From positions 1 through 34,083 of IMG/VR virus record IMGVR_UViG_3300020044_005404: 34,083 nucleotides of DNA; one strand, written 5' to 3'. Position 1 is the first letter of the stretch, and each line of letters opens with the position of its first letter. Source of the stretch: a virus (Duplodnaviria > Caudoviricetes). The position numbers were made by a program, and so were the translations under genes. The notes under the pieces are model-generated. The model did not search any database. It was given only the letters and a program-made list of their open reading frames with translations, and was not told the DNA's origin. Below, piece after piece: positions 4,939-33,841 of this stretch.

Positions 4939-5210
4939 CCGAAACCGATGTCCTCTCCGTTATCTATAAGTTTGCTACACCTATCCTTATTGGTGTGGTC
5001 TCTTATTTCCTTAAGGGTATTGGCAAGACAGTCCGTCAGATTGAGTCAGACATTACACGCTTCCGCATTGAATATGAAGGCCACCGTGTCATACTGCAAG
5101 AACACAAAGAAAGGCTTGAGAAAATCGAGAACAAGCTCGACCAGAACGATAGAGACCTCAAAGTATTCTACATGGAATTTGCTTCAGACCTTAAAAAAAG
5201 ACAATCCTAA
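4935..5210 (+). CDS. Single-TM coiled-coil protein (holin/spanin-associated)
   Basis: N-terminal hydrophobic helix followed by a heptad-rich segment; lies upstream of the lysis genes. Confidence 0.55.
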   Translation: MTETDVLSVIYKFATPILIGVVSYFLKGIGKTVRQIESDITRFRIEYEGHRVILQEHKERLEKIENKLDQNDRDLKVFYMEFASDLKKRQS

Positions 5211-6082: not shown

Positions 6083-6561
6083 CCGAGGCAGAAAAATACA
6101 ACCGCCTGATAGCTCGCTATGGTAACCCAATGCGTAATCCAAAGGCTTTTGAGGCCGAATGGATGATAATGTGGAACGTCCCCATGTGGATAGATACCCA
6201 CATCCCGGCACTGCCTAACCGTATGTATGTCAATAAGGATATCGTTCCCGTCCTAGAACATACCCTTAACAATATCATAAGCCTTGGAGCTTACAAAGAG
6301 ATTAAGACCTATGACGGAATGTTCAATATCCGTTACATCCGAGGCTCAAAGACAAAGCTTTCAATCCATTCTTGGGGACTGGCAATAGACCTTAACGCCG
6401 CTAACAACCCGTTGGGGAAAACTAAGGCCGAATGTATTGCTTTGGGACTCAATCCTTTTACTACCTTGTTCGATGAAGTTTGGCGGGATGCCGGATGGAC
6501 CTGTGGGATAGACTTTAAACGAGGGGATGGGATGCACTTTGAATACACAGCACACCTATAA
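6079..6561 (+). CDS. Endolysin, peptidase M15 family
   Basis: SIHSWGLAIDLN (SxHxxGxAxD) and DGMHFE Zn-binding motifs. Start placed at 6079 because of the ATGA overlap with the holin stop. Confidence 0.9.
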   Translation: MTEAEKYNRLIARYGNPMRNPKAFEAEWMIMWNVPMWIDTHIPALPNRMYVNKDIVPVLEHTLNNIISLGAYKEIKTYDGMFNIRYIRGSKTKLSIHSWGLAIDLNAANNPLGKTKAECIALGLNPFTTLFDEVWRDAGWTCGIDFKRGDGMHFEYTAHL

Positions 6562-11157: not shown

Positions 11158-11472
11158 ATGGCGAAAGTAATCATCTTTGACTTTGACGGAACAGCCAACA
11201 CCCGCAAAGGAGCTGAAACTATTGACCGTTGGTTAGCTGGTGGCGATATCATCCACATCGTTACAGCCCGTACCCGTGGCATGGAAGAAGTATATGAGTG
11301 GGCTGAATCACACGGCATACTTAAGAGCCGGGTACACCAAGTCAACCGGGGAGAAAAGTGGAAGCTAGTCCAACGCCTAGGAGCGGAAAAGCTAATCGAT
11401 AATAACCCCGATGAACTCGAACTTGTAAGAAAGAATACTAATGCACTGGCATGGTCGCCAGAGAGACTATGA
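11158..11472 (+). CDS. Minimal HAD-superfamily phosphatase
   Basis: FDFDGT motif I, IVTAR motif II, K motif III, IDNNPDE motif IV. Confidence 0.8.
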   Translation: MAKVIIFDFDGTANTRKGAETIDRWLAGGDIIHIVTARTRGMEEVYEWAESHGILKSRVHQVNRGEKWKLVQRLGAEKLIDNNPDELELVRKNTNALAWSPERL

Positions 11473-11723
11473 AAGGAAATCACAACCAACCAAAGATAGC
11501 ACGAGCTTTACAGATGATGTTCTTGTTATCAGATACTAAAAGTGGATATTCCGTAAAGTATCTATCTGAAATTACCGGAATAACAACCAGAAGCATTTAC
11601 CGATATCTTAATATGTTCGAGACTATCGGTTATCAATTAGAAAAAAATCATAATAAATTTAGAATCATTAACTTCAAAATCAGTCCTAACAATGGAAACA
11701 ACCAAAAAGGTTTACCTAGCTAA
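11469..11723 (+). CDS. Stand-alone winged HTH resembling the N-terminus of WYL-domain regulators
   Basis: QPKIARAL..., YSVKYLSEITGITTRSIYRYLNMFETIGY; no WYL domain follows. Confidence 0.75.
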   Translation: MKGNHNQPKIARALQMMFLLSDTKSGYSVKYLSEITGITTRSIYRYLNMFETIGYQLEKNHNKFRIINFKISPNNGNNQKGLPS

Positions 11724-11967
11724 CCTAAAAAGCTTTGGAAATTTCGGTTCTATAAAAGGTCGTATCTACGCCGATAAAACCGCTGAACACTGGCAGACCG
11801 ATGATAAAGGTCGTAAGTACCTACCTATCATCATCAATGTCAACAAAGAGCCTGATCAGTACGGTAACACCCATGCCGTAGTCCTTGACACATGGAAGCC
11901 GGAGACTCAACAGGCACCTGTTAGTAAGTCAAAGACGGAGACAGCTCCTAACGACCTTCCTTTCTGA
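11692..11967 (+). CDS. Putative single-stranded DNA-binding protein
   Basis: Short beta-rich domain (GRKYL, DQYGNTH), flexible linker and SSB-type C-terminal tip NDLPF. Confidence 0.7.
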   Translation: METTKKVYLANLKSFGNFGSIKGRIYADKTAEHWQTDDKGRKYLPIIINVNKEPDQYGNTHAVVLDTWKPETQQAPVSKSKTETAPNDLPF

Positions 11968-11976
11968 TATTTGACA

Positions 11977-12060
11977 AACTCCGTGCAGGGAGTTGGTTTT
12001 GGTTAATCATCTTTACCCTATTGCCCGAAGGTCTGCACACCGGAGGGTAGTAGGGTTTTT
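11977..12060 (+). ncRNA. Candidate structured RNA: two hairpins with complementary 6-nt loops, ending in an intrinsic terminator
   Basis: Hairpin 1: AACTCC-GTGCAG-GGAGTT. Hairpin 2: 12-bp stem, GAA/GGA internal loop, 3-bp stem, loop CTGCAC; then a T-tract. Confidence 0.7.
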
Positions 12061-12072
12061 AATATAAATACC

Positions 12073-12336
12073 ATGGAATATAAACAAACAGCCGTACAAT
12101 GGCTATGGAAAGAATGGAGCGATTTAATGAAATCATCTATTGACAGCTACGGTAGGTTTATTATATCAGAAGAGCAATATATTGATAAGTTGGTGCAACT
12201 ATTTAACATTGCTGATAAACAACTTGTAGAAGATTTAATAAATGGAATTGATAAAGCAAAAGTTAATAGTATTGAAGGTAAGAAATATGTAAAAGATACT
12301 TATGGTATTCATATTGAAAACATATATCTAAACTAA
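12073..12336 (+). CDS. Hypothetical protein (KQTAVxWL-type, AT-rich)
   Basis: 87 aa, A-rich initiation region. Confidence 0.65.
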   Translation: MEYKQTAVQWLWKEWSDLMKSSIDSYGRFIISEEQYIDKLVQLFNIADKQLVEDLINGIDKAKVNSIEGKKYVKDTYGIHIENIYLN

Positions 12337-12764
12337 TGTCTAAACGCTACACCCCGGCAATGGTTGACCTTCTGAACAAGGCAATGGAATACAGTAAGAC
12401 CAACTATCCTTCCATCCCCGACCATGCACGTCCAAAGCCTTCCTACAAGACCACCGATGCCAATGGACTTACCAAAGCCATAGTAGAATGGATAGACCTT
12501 TCTGGCGGTTGGGCAACACGGATCAGTACCGAAGGACGTTATATCGAGTCACTCGGTAAACGTATCCATTCATCAGTAAAGAAAGGAACAGCCGATATTC
12601 ATGCCGTCTGGAAAGGGATGCACCTATCCATAGAGGTTAAGATAGGAGCCGATAGGCAGTCACCTGAACAGAAAGCCATAGAGACCGATGTCAAGGCCGC
12701 CGGGGGGCATTACTTCATAGCTAAAGACTTTGACACATTCTATAATTGGATAACAACACTATAA
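12336..12764 (+). CDS. VRR-NUC domain nuclease (Holliday junction resolvase-like)
   Basis: GTADI, IEVK, QSPEQK, GG.YFIA motifs. Confidence 0.85.
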   Translation: MSKRYTPAMVDLLNKAMEYSKTNYPSIPDHARPKPSYKTTDANGLTKAIVEWIDLSGGWATRISTEGRYIESLGKRIHSSVKKGTADIHAVWKGMHLSIEVKIGADRQSPEQKAIETDVKAAGGHYFIAKDFDTFYNWITTL

Positions 12765-13046: not shown

Positions 13047-13120
13047 GCTGTATCTACTACCCGCCGCCAAAGCCTAAGAAGCCACGGTCTATTAAGATAG
13101 GGCATCTGATAAACTCTTAA
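13043..13120 (+). CDS. Putative 25-aa leader peptide upstream of the primase; not in the ORF track
   Basis: MSCIYYPPPKPKKPRSIKIGHLINS; ATGA-coupled to the upstream gene; stop codon 13 nt before the primase ATG. Confidence 0.5.
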   Translation: MSCIYYPPPKPKKPRSIKIGHLINS

Positions 13121-13133
13121 CCAAAACCAAACC

Positions 13134-15638
13134 ATGAACCAACTTATTACAACGGCTAGACAATACCTAGCCAGTGGGATATCTGTCACCCTAACAGATA
13201 ACCGTAAAGTATCACTCCTTAACTGGAAAGATTTCCAAAGCCGTCTAGCTACTGAAGATGAGCTTCAGAGCAAAGCCGATAAGGCACAAGGCATAGCCAT
13301 CATCTGCGGAGCTATCAGCGGTAATCTTGAAGTCATTGACATCGATACCAAGTACGACCTGACAGGTAAGCTATTCGATAACTTGATGGTTTTTCTTGGA
13401 GACCTAGCAGATCTGTTAGTCATCGCACGTACCAAGTCAGGCGGTTACCATCTTTACTACCGATGCGATACCGTACAAGGTAATCAGAAGCTCGCACGTA
13501 GGCCCGTGTCGGACGCTGAAGCATCCGACAACCCACACGTCAAGGTAATGGTACTAATAGAGACCCGTGGCGAAGGTGGATACATCGTAGCACCACCAAC
13601 GGATGGCTATTCTTGGATACATAACGATTGGCAGGATATCCAAACCATAACCACCGAACAGCGGGATGCTATCTTTGAAATCTGCCGCTCCTTCAATGAG
13701 TACCTCGAAGAACCTGTAATCCTTAAGAAGTCCGATGCAGAGTCAGGGTTCGGAGTGTCACCCATCGATGACTTTAACAGCCGAGGTGACGTTCTTGCAC
13801 TACTTCAGAAACACGGATGGACAAAGGTCCGTAATTCCTGTGACCGTACCTACCTACGCCGTCCCGGCAAAGAAGATGGTATAAGTGGCGACTTTCTGCA
13901 TTCAAAGCGTTGGTTCAGTGTCTTTACCACATCCAGTCAGTTTGAGCCTACCAAAGCCTACTACCCGTCAGCCGTTTATGCAATCCTTGAATGTAATGGA
14001 GACTTTAACGAAGCCGTCAAACGACTGGCATCGGAAGGATATGGCGAAGACATTAGCACCCATAACCGTAAGAAGATACTCGATAACTTTATCAAGAAAC
14101 TCCGTGAGAATAACCACGATGATGATGATATCGAGACTATCCTAATACGTGAAAAAAACCTAAAGCCCAAACAGGCAAAGAAAGCCGTTCAGGATAGCTA
14201 CAAGATGACAGAGCCGTCTGGGGCGTTCTGGAGTCGTAACGATAAAGATAAGCTCGAAATCAACAAGGCTAAACTTATCGAGTTCCTTGTAAACAATGGT
14301 TTTTATCTTATGGCTTATGATGCCAATGGTAACGATATGCGCCTTGTTAACGTCAAGGACTTCATGATAGAAGAAAGCTCCATCGAAAAGGTAAAGAAGT
14401 GCATCATAAACTACGTCAAGACCATCGACCAAGAAGTCGAGGATTGGATAATGAACCGGCCTAACCTTATCAATGAAGCATTTTTGGAATTCCTTCCAAA
14501 GATAGAACCCAAACTTTTAGAAGATACCAAAACAACCGCCTACTTTCCTTTCATCAATAAGATAGTTAAGATAACCAAGGACGGCATAGAATTAGTTGAC
14601 TATGGCGATATAAAAAAACACATCTGGCGGTCGGCTAAGATTGACTATGAGATAGAGATAGAACAGATACTCTTTGATGATGAGTTCCGTATAGACCCAG
14701 AGATGGATGTCTATGCTCAATTTATCAGACTTATCTGCAATGAGAATACCGACCGTTGGTTTGCCGTCAACACTCACATCGGGTACCTGTTACACAAATA
14801 CAAAGACCCGACATTGGCAGTAGCCGTAATCCTTGCTGAAGAAACCGATAACGATGCCAAAGGTGGCGGTACAGGAAAGGGAATCTTTGTCAAAGCCATC
14901 GGCGAACTGGTCAAAGGTGAGACCATCGATGGTAAGAACTTCAAGCTCGATAAGTCCTTTGCCTTCCAACGAGTCGGACTCGATACCCGTATCCTTGCTA
15001 TTCAGGATATTCGGGCAAAGGTGGACTTTGAGGGATTCTATTCCATTATAACCGAGGGGATAACCGTTGAAAAGAAAGGGCAGGCTGAAATCTTTATTAA
15101 CTACGACAGGTCGCCAAAGATTATATTCACCACAAACTACATGGTTCCAAATATCGGCAACCACGCAAAACGCCGCCAACGGGTTATCCCTTTCTCCGAC
15201 TTCTTCAGCCCGGAACGCACTCCGATGGATGTATTTCAACATCAGTTCTTTACCGGGTGGGATAAGGGCCAATGGAAGCTATTCTATAACTACCTTTTTG
15301 CCTGTTGTCAGTACTATCTTCGTAAAGGACTTATAGAGGTTCCGGTCACGGAAGGTATGCAGCTAAAAAGCCTTAAAACCGCATTTGGTGAAGAATTTAA
15401 GAAGTGGTGGGTAGACTTTATTGCCGATGGATTGAACGTTGAGCATGAGTTCAAGGTCTTGTATAATTCCTTTCTGTCAGCATCCGAGATGCCAGAACAT
15501 GAGTACAGCCGTAAAAGATTCCGGAAGGGATTGGACACGGCATCGACCATGTTCGGACTAGAAATCAAGCATCACAACCATGGACCGATAGGTGGAAGGA
15601 TGGTTTCTTTCATTAAAAACGCATCAGTTAATGTATAA
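13134..15638 (+). CDS. Bifunctional Prim-Pol (AEP) primase fused to SF3/D5-like helicase
   Basis: N-terminal VIDID, TKSGGYHLYY and RGEGGYIVAPPT; C-terminal Walker A GGGTGKG and motif C FTTN. Confidence 0.92.
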   Translation: MNQLITTARQYLASGISVTLTDNRKVSLLNWKDFQSRLATEDELQSKADKAQGIAIICGAISGNLEVIDIDTKYDLTGKLFDNLMVFLGDLADLLVIARTKSGGYHLYYRCDTVQGNQKLARRPVSDAEASDNPHVKVMVLIETRGEGGYIVAPPTDGYSWIHNDWQDIQTITTEQRDAIFEICRSFNEYLEEPVILKKSDAESGFGVSPIDDFNSRGDVLALLQKHGWTKVRNSCDRTYLRRPGKEDGISGDFLHSKRWFSVFTTSSQFEPTKAYYPSAVYAILECNGDFNEAVKRLASEGYGEDISTHNRKKILDNFIKKLRENNHDDDDIETILIREKNLKPKQAKKAVQDSYKMTEPSGAFWSRNDKDKLEINKAKLIEFLVNNGFYLMAYDANGNDMRLVNVKDFMIEESSIEKVKKCIINYVKTIDQEVEDWIMNRPNLINEAFLEFLPKIEPKLLEDTKTTAYFPFINKIVKITKDGIELVDYGDIKKHIWRSAKIDYEIEIEQILFDDEFRIDPEMDVYAQFIRLICNENTDRWFAVNTHIGYLLHKYKDPTLAVAVILAEETDNDAKGGGTGKGIFVKAIGELVKGETIDGKNFKLDKSFAFQRVGLDTRILAIQDIRAKVDFEGFYSIITEGITVEKKGQAEIFINYDRSPKIIFTTNYMVPNIGNHAKRRQRVIPFSDFFSPERTPMDVFQHQFFTGWDKGQWKLFYNYLFACCQYYLRKGLIEVPVTEGMQLKSLKTAFGEEFKKWWVDFIADGLNVEHEFKVLYNSFLSASEMPEHEYSRKRFRKGLDTASTMFGLEIKHHNHGPIGGRMVSFIKNASVNV

Positions 15639-18418: not shown

Positions 18419-18836
18419 ACCATTCTGCCAGTTCCTTTACGATATGCACGACCGCCCGGCAAAGGATGCGGTCTATCGCTTTCTACTCAAGTGGTATGCA
18501 TCGGACATCCATCCGGACCAACAGCCTAACGAGTACGGACGTTACGACTTCATAATGTACAAGGGAGACGATGAGGTAAAGGTCGAGGTTCAACGTAAGC
18601 TCGGATGGACGGAACGGGGCAGATGGCAGCGGAACTTCAACAGCATCGACATCGAATACCGTAAGCTAAAGAGTGAGGCGGACTTGTTCTGCATCGTTAA
18701 CGCTACCATTGATACGGTCGCCATCATCCGTAGGGATGTGGTTATGCGAAGCCCTGTCACTGAAAAGGATACCCGTTACGGTCGTGAGCCTTTCTTTAAT
18801 ATACCTATCTTTAAAGCCTATATCTCTATCATATGA
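18405..18836 (+). CDS. Putative PD-(D/E)XK-fold nuclease
   Basis: YD....(K)VEVQRK..W spacing resembles restriction-endonuclease-like active sites. Confidence 0.45.
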   Translation: MIRTKPFCQFLYDMHDRPAKDAVYRFLLKWYASDIHPDQQPNEYGRYDFIMYKGDDEVKVEVQRKLGWTERGRWQRNFNSIDIEYRKLKSEADLFCIVNATIDTVAIIRRDVVMRSPVTEKDTRYGREPFFNIPIFKAYISII

Positions 18837-19621
18837 AAATCCTAGTGAAGTGGCCGACACGGTCACGCCCTAATAAGTTTCTCAAGACCTTGTACCTGTA
18901 TCAGTCTTTGCGGTCTACGGAAACGGTTGACTTCCTGATTACCATCGATAGCGATGACCATAGGATGTTACAGCGTGATGTGGTCAATACCTTAAGGCAG
19001 TGGGGCAACCTACGCTATGAGATTATCGAGCCATGTGGTAAGATAGGTGCTATCAATAGCGGCGTGGAAGCTATCAGTAGGCAGTACGACATCATTGTAC
19101 TGGCATCGGATGACATGATACCGGCGGTCAAGGAGTGGGATAAGCGGATAGCCGATGACATGGAGCGGCTCTATCCTGATACGGATGGGGTGCTGTGGTA
19201 TAACGATGGGTATGTTGGTGATAAGCTTAACACCCTTTGTATCCTTGGCACTAAGTACTACCGCCGTTTCAACTACATCTACCATCCGGATTATCAAGCA
19301 CTTTGGTGCGATAACGAGTTTATGGAAGTGGCTTCTATGTTGGGGAAACAGACCTACTTTAAAGACGTTATCATCCGCCATGAGCATCCTATTCACGGTC
19401 ACGGACGGCAGGATAACCTAAACCATAGAGACAATCATTTGTATTATGAAGACAAACGAACCTACGACCTTCGAAAGTCCAACAACTTTGGAATCACAGC
19501 CATTACTAAGCCTATTGATACCGACCCTTCAGAACCGGACGGAGCTGTTCGGCAAGTTGCTCAAGGAGATAAACAGCCAGATAGCAAACCTAAACGCAGA
19601 AGGAAAGGTTCAAGTGTGTAG
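18833..19621 (+). CDS. Glycosyltransferase (GT-A fold, GT2-like)
   Basis: PTRSRP, IDSDD, GKIGAIN, ASDDM (DxD-like), WCDNE, H.HP. Confidence 0.88.
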   Translation: MKILVKWPTRSRPNKFLKTLYLYQSLRSTETVDFLITIDSDDHRMLQRDVVNTLRQWGNLRYEIIEPCGKIGAINSGVEAISRQYDIIVLASDDMIPAVKEWDKRIADDMERLYPDTDGVLWYNDGYVGDKLNTLCILGTKYYRRFNYIYHPDYQALWCDNEFMEVASMLGKQTYFKDVIIRHEHPIHGHGRQDNLNHRDNHLYYEDKRTYDLRKSNNFGITAITKPIDTDPSEPDGAVRQVAQGDKQPDSKPKRRRKGSSV

Positions 19622-20078
19622 CCTTTCGGATAACAGGCAGATGTCCATCGGGGATAAGCGTAACCGCCTGATGGCAATGGCTACGGGTAAGTACATTGCC
19701 TTTATCGATGATGATGACACTATCCACCGTGACTACCTACGTCATGTTTTACGGGCGTTGGAACTTGATCCTGATGTGGTTGGTTTGGTGGGAGAGATAA
19801 CCATGCAGGCAACCGGCAGGGGGACTATCCGTAGGAAGTTCTTCCATACCATCCGTAACGATAGGTACTACCAGTCCCAACGTGGATACGAAAGACCGCC
19901 GAACCATCTGAACCCGATGCGTAAGAGTATTGCTCAAACGTTTGAATTTGTGGATAAAAGCCACGGAGAGGATACGGATTGGGCGATGCGAATATGTAAG
20001 TCAAAGGTCCTTAAGTCTGAGGTCATGGTGGATAATATACTTTATTTCTACAACTTCAATCCCAATAAAAAGTATTAA
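19446..20078 (+). CDS. Glycosyltransferase family 2
   Basis: LSLLIPT, IGDKRN.L...A.GKYIAFIDDDD, GEDTDW. Confidence 0.92.
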   Translation: MKTNEPTTFESPTTLESQPLLSLLIPTLQNRTELFGKLLKEINSQIANLNAEGKVQVCSLSDNRQMSIGDKRNRLMAMATGKYIAFIDDDDTIHRDYLRHVLRALELDPDVVGLVGEITMQATGRGTIRRKFFHTIRNDRYYQSQRGYERPPNHLNPMRKSIAQTFEFVDKSHGEDTDWAMRICKSKVLKSEVMVDNILYFYNFNPNKKY

Positions 20079-32725: not shown

Positions 32726-33841
32726 ATGGCAAACGGTCTTGCTCCATATTTATTGAACGACATGAAGTCGTTAGTCGGCGGTGCCTATCCCGGCCACAAA
32801 GTCGACCTTAAGGGTTTCCTCGCTATGCTTACCTCTGGTAACGGCGCAAACCCTATCCAAACTTCTAACCTTGCAGGTCACAAGAAAGAAGTACGTTTCT
32901 GGTATCGTAACCGTAACACCAAGCCGCAGACTGATACGTCAGCATCATGCGACAATGTGTTAACTCCTGCTCGTAAAGAGTACACGGTATCCGTTGGTAA
33001 CACCCGTCAAATCGCATGGCACTTGCCTGATGAGTTGGTGGCTTCTTACATGGATGAGGCTTCTGCCCGTGTAAACATCCCCGGCGGTCCTATTGGCGGT
33101 GCTTCTGCTGAACTGTTGGACATCATCCTTTCTGGTGCTAACGGCATCTTGGAAGGTGTGAACGATGACCTGTTAGGTCTTATCACTTGGGGTAAGAACA
33201 AGGTAAGCGGTTCTAACGCTGCTGTTACCTTGAATATCTCTGCTGATTCTTCAGTTCAGAAGTTGACCACTGGCTTCCCTAAACTGTTGGGAGACTACAA
33301 GAAGAATAACCTCTCTGGTGTTCCTAACATCGTTGGTGCTGGTCTGTTCTACTCTTATATGCTGTCTCAGCCTTTCAAGAGCCCTGATCAGTCAGGTATG
33401 AACAGCATGATGGCTGCGGGTGGTGTGAACTTCTTCGCTGACCAAGACTTCGCTGATACCGTTGGTGCTGACCAAATCGGTGTATTCGAGCCGGGTTCTA
33501 TCCAACTTGTTGAGTACCTTGAGTACACTGGCTTCAAAGCAGGTGTTAAGCCGGGTTCTTCTGAGTTCGGTGTTATCGCTCTCCCTGCTGTTGCTTCTGA
33601 TGGCTCTCTGTTGCCTGTGAAGTTCGACTGGCAGCTGAAGTACATCGACTGTCCTACGACCTTGACGGACGCTTACAGCGGTCAATCGGCTACCTATCAG
33701 AAAGGTTGGAGCTTCATCATGAAGAAAGACTTCGGTCTGTTCCAATTGCCTTCTGACAGCTACCGTCAAGAAGATGGTAACTATTCAGTTAACGGCGCAT
33801 TGCGTTACAACGTAACGAACGCTTGCGACACTTGTTCCTAA
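32726..33841 (+). CDS. Major capsid protein
   Basis: 371 aa, strongly biased codon usage (GGT/GCT/TCT/TTC), canonical position after portal, minor head and scaffold genes. Confidence 0.8.
   Translation: MANGLAPYLLNDMKSLVGGAYPGHKVDLKGFLAMLTSGNGANPIQTSNLAGHKKEVRFWYRNRNTKPQTDTSASCDNVLTPARKEYTVSVGNTRQIAWHLPDELVASYMDEASARVNIPGGPIGGASAELLDIILSGANGILEGVNDDLLGLITWGKNKVSGSNAAVTLNISADSSVQKLTTGFPKLLGDYKKNNLSGVPNIVGAGLFYSYMLSQPFKSPDQSGMNSMMAAGGVNFFADQDFADTVGADQIGVFEPGSIQLVEYLEYTGFKAGVKPGSSEFGVIALPAVASDGSLLPVKFDWQLKYIDCPTTLTDAYSGQSATYQKGWSFIMKKDFGLFQLPSDSYRQEDGNYSVNGALRYNVTNACDTCS

Follow-up and report, generated by a model that had tools for sequence, protein, structure and literature searches.

The window analysed here, the whole 34,083-nucleotide stretch of IMG/VR record IMGVR_UViG_3300020044_005404, is a 34-kb phage record with almost all genes on one strand. 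At positions 11,977 to 12,060, behind a putative ssb gene, it carries an RNA element that belongs to an uncatalogued RNA family in phages of Bacteroidota. Members of this family share a promoter box, a short hairpin, an A/U-rich linker, a long terminator-type hairpin with an internal loop, and a U-tract, and the loops of the two hairpins are complementary to each other. We propose, with a probability of about 0.5, that a family member acts as an attenuator ahead of replication genes, gated by pairing between the two loops (the 'kiss').

Unrelated phages with the same layout were found by pattern scans of IMG/VR and of metagenomes, starting from the window's own sequence. In the scan that left the loops unconstrained, the promoter, the internal loop (AGUA/GAA) and the U-tract were fixed, and 120 of about 200 loci were taken, 97 of them distinct. 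Among these matches listed, all 81 distinct copies with a stem of at least 7 base pairs present a Watson-Crick match of 6-9 nucleotides between the head (the loop of the short hairpin) and the tip (the loop of the long one), spelled in 27 different 'kiss words'. The 42 distinct tips all match their own head, versus 9% of cross pairs, and the maximum reached in 5,000 permutations was 14 matches. Since every long-stemmed copy from this loop-unconstrained scan matches, and the copies do so in so many words, covariation across the family supports the predicted kiss. The loop complementarity that a sequence-only reading had noticed in the window is thus not a chance feature, and the compact RNA locked by a loop-loop pseudoknot that it had proposed is supported by the family.

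In a model alignment of 70 sequences, pairing reaches 94.6% in the kiss helix, all four of whose pairs show two-sided changes; P2, the stem of the long hairpin, is 96.6% paired and P1, that of the short one, 79%, with two-sided changes in all pairs. It tells against our reading that the kiss columns were picked after this alignment had been viewed and that many members are related, which makes the count with free loops the cleaner evidence for covariation. A scan with fixed loops and free stems (119 loci, 73 distinct), in which the promoter was not a selection criterion, recovered the full architecture in 24 of 40 distinct matches lying after an exact TAnnTTTG box, versus 1 of 33 without it; TAnnTTTG is the -7 consensus of Bacteroidota promoters. 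Earlier, fixing the stems as CC/GG had given the window's word only (4/4) and so an impression of invariant loops, which the free-loop scan overturned.

Family linkers are 56% A and 7% G, and 64 of 74 contain an A-rich motif. The spacing from kiss to internal loop is narrow (median 34 nucleotides), and no correlation was found between linker length and stem length. The AGUA/GAA internal loop is presumably of the loop E/sarcin-ricin type. The genomes searched hold one copy each. Outside the phages, none of the 120 matches listed from a pattern scan of bacterial genomes has the architecture, most being GC-rich chance matches, and samples of Bacteroidota genomes, which included no positive control, gave 0 of 5, 0 of 132 (model) and 0 of 401 (pattern). 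A pattern scan anchored on the linker returned three matches, none with the structure. Loci L025, L026, L035 and L030 match the pattern and not the model, and were excluded from all counts; the first three (about 4980-5055, - strand) come from a phage of 53% GC and show the same two loop words and a 9-base-pair stem 3' of a gene of 320 amino acids, with neither promoter box nor U-tract. Genome G021, which has a typical member further upstream, also has a second, longer promoter-hairpin-terminator leader (L466, 8069-8170, - strand) directly 5' of a DUF6291 initiator gene.

What lies downstream of these elements? Members are mostly found just 5' of genes for DUF6291 or DnaD-like initiators, primases, helicases, thymidylate synthase or phosphoribosyl pyrophosphate (PRPP) synthetase, genes that are non-homologous across members. 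With labelled proteins as queries, and with 35 of 80 members dropped as they had no downstream sequence, 28 of 45 distinct members have an initiator, primase or helicase gene in the 2 kb that follow, and in 17 it is the first gene. When both flanks are present (n = 30), a replication gene is downstream in 15 cases and upstream in 6. These positions support the link to DNA replication that had been suggested from the window alone. The kiss element also stands ahead of replication genes in all five loci fetched from cultured phages. Olleya phage Harreka_1 has a clear member (48.9 bits); Flavobacterium phages lillamy9-3 and elemoC and Cellulophaga phages phi19:3 and phi13:2 have longer variants, with kisses of 7-8 nucleotides and weak model scores (19.8-23.8 bits). 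The presence of the element in these cultured phages supports Bacteroidota hosts for the family, and presumably for the window phage itself.

In the window, the element is made of the following parts.
11,966 to 11,973, + strand: degenerate Bacteroidota-type -7 box, one mismatch from TAnnTTTG, at the family spacing; absent from relatives L420 and L024.
11,977 to 11,994, + strand: P1 hairpin, which holds loop 1; four G+C-rich pairs, at most six with flanking A-U pairs.
11,983 to 11,988, + strand: loop 1, the kiss word.
11,993 to 12,014, + strand: linker, G/U-rich in this copy and A-rich in the family.
12,015 to 12,056, + strand: terminator-type hairpin, with P2 (12,015-12,026/12,045-12,056), a GAA/GGA internal loop and P3 (12,030-12,032/12,039-12,041).
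12,033 to 12,038, + strand: loop 2, complementary to loop 1.
12,056 to 12,060, + strand: U-tract of five T, interrupted or shorter in population variants and relatives.

The letters confirm that loops 1 and 2 are exactly complementary, and the predicted fold of this RNA of about 80 bases contains both hairpins, the second with the 12-base-pair stem, 3x3 internal loop and T-tract described earlier, plus a cap stem of 3 base pairs. The fold has a z-score of -3.57, and none of 200 shuffles is equally stable. The score of 44.1 bits with family model R1 was obtained with the window copy as part of the training set. P1, the complementary loops, P2 with its internal loop and the U-tract are all present, and the exact promoter box and the A-rich linker are missing: the linker is only 17% A and has no family motif. 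The one-mismatch -7 box is indeed where it had been reported, and its spacing agrees with that of the family; the + strand of the window has 212 such one-mismatch sites, so a single box carries little weight.

No Rfam 15 family matched the window or its relatives at gathering score except a tRNA, and at E-value thresholds likewise nothing matched the element, in agreement with the initial impression that it is not a known family. No description of the motif turned up in the literature searched; an unnamed candidate could be present in the supplement of PMC5737381 or in files 1, 2 and 4 of PMC10690425, a possible source of alignments outside this search. The element is real and uncatalogued, and would be a variant of kiss-controlled terminators; the antisense role that the sequence-only reading gave to its linker, discussed below, is unproven and not general.

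How could such an element act? We infer that the RNA is made and that it terminates; a promoter box and a U-tract are present in most members. During transcription, the tip of the 5' hairpin would pair with that of the terminator hairpin and, with the tips paired, the terminator would not work and transcription would continue into the replication genes. Loop 1 is transcribed about 45 nucleotides ahead of loop 2, and in folding of successive prefixes the loops can pair before the last stem strand appears. Kissing would then be the ON state, a view based on the analogy with guanidine-IV and on a subset of members in which loop 2 has a possible alternative partner, a copy of loop 1 situated at the next start codon. 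This 'third site' is detected at two levels: the tip pairs over at least 6 nucleotides with the 70 nucleotides 3' of the U-tract in 27 of 95 members (5% of cross pairs), and loop 2 pairs over at least 6 nucleotides with the start of the member's own replication gene in 13 of 43 (0.8% of cross pairs). It covaries through five words, and seven of the 13 members are close kin. Where a third site exists, the kiss would also free the start codon; none was found for the window copy. As its promoter and U-tract are degenerate, the window copy is likely to be read from the upstream early operon, and would let part of the transcription pass from the recombination/ssb genes to the nuclease-primase genes, as a leaky gate. 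As for the trigger, our default guess would be folding kinetics, or a protein on the single-stranded linker.

The closest known system is guanidine-IV (mepA/GGAM-1), in which, from the parts of the reports consulted, the loops of a 5' hairpin and of a Rho-independent terminator hairpin kiss, reportedly hindering the complete terminator and raising read-through (PMC11611296, PMC7736828). The element has this same topology, which supports an earlier side remark that the kiss may modulate termination. However, guanidine-IV loops are highly conserved for ligand binding, whereas here we have 27 words among the matches listed and no Rfam match; our long stem has an internal loop; and genes downstream are exporters (sugE/mepA-type) in guanidine-IV and phage replication and nucleotide genes here. 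The CI RNA of phage P4, as described in the part of PMC4825925 consulted, is a short leader-derived RNA acting through premature termination ahead of replication genes, where one sequence has two complementary partners (seqA/seqC), much as loop 2 would have loop 1 and the third site. In our case, however, there is no Rfam c4 match, no processed three-stem RNA and no sign of lysogeny, and the window copy has no third site, which 13 of 43 members do show. The c4 RNA of phages P1 and P7 is akin to P4 CI RNA. Among Bacteroides small RNAs, FopS and GibS share the Bacteroidota setting, a single-stranded seed binding near start codons and a terminator after the seed (PMC11697453, main text in part). 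FopS was rejected as a relative: it has a single-stranded 5' end, one hairpin and 12-15 copies per genome, is chromosomal, and resembles the element in none of these; the portion of that main text searched mentions no pseudoknot or kiss. The RT-14 motif (RF02921), with a short hairpin, an A-rich linker and a stem with a UAGUA/GAA loop, weakly resembles one member. This candidate was also rejected, at 30.4 bits (E = 0.72, gathering score 48.1) and for 1 of 20 loci; the tip of its model is not a kiss partner and no reverse transcriptase was seen near the member.

Several observations weigh against the attenuator, mostly from the window's own lineage. There the U-tract is short or interrupted and the promoter box imperfect or missing, the window copy has neither the A-rich linker motif nor the third site, and the gene directly 3' of the hairpin is swapped between strains; for these reasons the window copy may no longer terminate. 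Across the family, no replication gene was recognised in the 2 kb after the element in about one third of members, and some elements are located 3' of such genes. The attenuator also gives no account of a 14-nucleotide match between the linker and the start of the primase gene. The main unexplained point is that the fold is retained even where promoter and terminator look decayed: L420 and L024 show compensatory changes in the stems and loops of the element.

The target of this match is a single segment.
13,117 to 13,130, + strand: start region of the primase-helicase gene, complementary to the linker and predicted unpaired.

Positions 11,993-12,006 are, as the sequence-only reading claimed, the exact reverse complement of this segment, which ends 3 nucleotides before the primase ATG at 13,134. 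The match spans about -17 to -4 of the primase start, 1.1 kb downstream of the element, and a one-nucleotide deletion in twin strains extends it to 15 nucleotides; it is seen only in the window phage and its near-twins. The target is of low complexity, which called for a test of significance. By its placement the match is unusual: 169 of 100,000 dinucleotide shuffles of the 23-nucleotide linker reach 14 nucleotides in one of 59 start regions (0.0017, p ~0.002), Markov models give a chance of 2-5 x 10^-4 for any start region, and none of 2,824 start regions of other phages reaches 12 nucleotides with the window linker. Inverted pairs of this length are, on the other hand, not rare, as the window has five further perfect ones of at least 14 nucleotides besides its 109-nucleotide end repeat. 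A search for operator-like repeats of the 14-mer found a single further site, with two mismatches.

When linkers were compared with all start regions in 24 genomes or contigs, the window alone stood out. Across 43 other members, pairing between a linker and the start of the member's own replication gene averages 5.3 nucleotides, the same as for starts taken from other members (permutation p = 0.73), and never exceeds 9 nucleotides. L024, which is syntenic, has the same gene order, another kiss word and an A-rich linker, and matches its primase start over 5 nucleotides. With no excess pairing in 43 copies and no such match in L024, antisense to the primase is not a family trait, and the idea of the linker as an anti-initiation strand is not supported as a general design while surviving as a lineage-specific one. 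No linker-target covariation was seen among the relatives examined, the contig of the one informative close relative, L420, stopping short of the target region.

In its lineage-specific form, the kissed RNA from the 3' end of the ssb transcript would present its G/U-rich linker and block translation of the primase, a role compatible with attenuators elsewhere in the family. The primase start is the best of 19 start regions tested, with a computed net binding of about -15 kcal/mol, and the linker departs from the A-rich consensus exactly in the window lineage; L420 keeps 16 linker letters amid neighbouring genes that are about 78-82% identical, and other members reach replication-gene starts by another route, through loop 2. 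Initiation in Bacteroidota is also described as depending on structure and upstream A residues rather than on a Shine-Dalgarno sequence (PMC6847099, in the part consulted). However, the match was selected after the fact, part of the linker is predicted to self-pair, and the L420 contig stops before its primase start, leaving the target unseen. We therefore regard a functional linker-primase pairing, and this reading as a whole, as possible though doubtful. The readings considered here overlap in part, and a combination is somewhat less likely still: a widespread phage switch would use variable loop-loop pairing as a code that controls both termination and translation of the initiator, and the window lineage would have converted it into a guide-bearing scaffold whose antisense strand silences the primase, with ssb-operon transcripts feeding back on replication.

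The diversity of kiss words would also suit an address code acting in trans, where loop 2 of the terminated short RNA captures either a nascent loop 1, forcing termination, or the third site. Phages could in this way control copy number or exclude others that carry an identical word, as for P4 CI RNA with seqA/seqC (PMC4825925, in part). The 27 words among the matches listed, the covarying third site and the single copy per genome agree with such a code. Yet the kiss columns are better conserved than the stems and one word is common to unrelated phages, and hence diversifying selection is not apparent; a scan of 94 proteins, covering part of the genes of the window and of four genomes, gave no integrase or repressor match, and the window copy has no third site. 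We consider this feedback unlikely, and slightly more so a switch in which a nucleotide-type metabolite or a protein, such as the ssb product, binds the A-rich linker or the AGUA/GAA loop and tips the balance between kiss and terminator. The A-rich motif, the narrow kiss-to-internal-loop spacing and the non-homologous downstream genes, including those for thymidylate synthase and PRPP synthetase, would fit the latter, but loop letters vary, unlike the ligand-binding loops of guanidine-IV, AGUA/GAA was imposed by the scan pattern, and the window copy has neither this loop nor the A-rich motif. An ordinary terminator or RNA-stabilising hairpin with chance complementarities is very improbable, being contradicted by the loop-loop covariation and by covariation in P1.

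The genes around the window element follow the order putative ssb, element, small gene, nuclease, small gene, Prim-Pol/DUF5906 primase-helicase.
11,692 to 11,967, + strand: putative ssb gene, 91 amino acids, with an acidic DLPF tail and a stop codon that overlaps the -7-like box.
12,336 to 12,764, + strand: nuclease gene, similar to PHROG endonuclease/Holliday-junction resolvase.
13,134 to 15,638, + strand: primase-polymerase/helicase gene, 834 amino acids, Prim-Pol and DUF5906.

The assignment of the upstream gene to ssb is favoured by its acidic tail and a beta-rich model, and found no confirmation in Pfam, PHROGs, the Atlas or two fold searches, which gave no match above Z 2.7. A small HTH_11 gene (11,451-11,723) overlaps the ssb start; the twin genome lacks it at this position. 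The sequencing runs with the region are mostly freshwater, and no RNA run is among those listed as holding it. The element is identical in contigs of three runs despite 16 differences in the adjacent gene, of which the last 60 nucleotides are likewise invariant; a fourth run contributes one read only.

Between 12,057 and 12,335, different strains carry different genes, the switch point being the U-tract. Three different sequences occur 3' of the hairpin, one of which is a tRNA gene (6382-6455 of twin L001; ARAGORN Ala-CGC; Rfam 43 bits) whose anticodon arm is unusual. A sequence resembling this tRNA lies at about 6365-6460 in L002 but is not called as one. This genome, whose ssb is 66% identical, shows no model match to the element and has at the same place (6237-6330) two other strong hairpins, with loops that are not complementary. 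Elsewhere in the window, two glycosyltransferase-like genes (18,833-20,078) lie 3' of the terminase gene, and positions 1-109 are an inverted copy (95%, 109 nucleotides) of 33,077-33,185, within the open reading frame 32,726-33,841. The first 100 nucleotides look like an assembly artefact, since the twin genome continues from the end of the window into position 101.

The timing and limiting of DNA replication in phages of Bacteroidota have so far been largely unexplained. An RNA gate that is supported by covariation and precedes genes for unrelated initiators, primases and helicases would bear on both, and its presence in cultured phages with named hosts makes it testable. It would also add a second natural example, after guanidine-IV, of the proposed competition between kiss and terminator. 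If the pairing between linker and primase start is used, the window would show a regulatory RNA while it is acquiring a new target.
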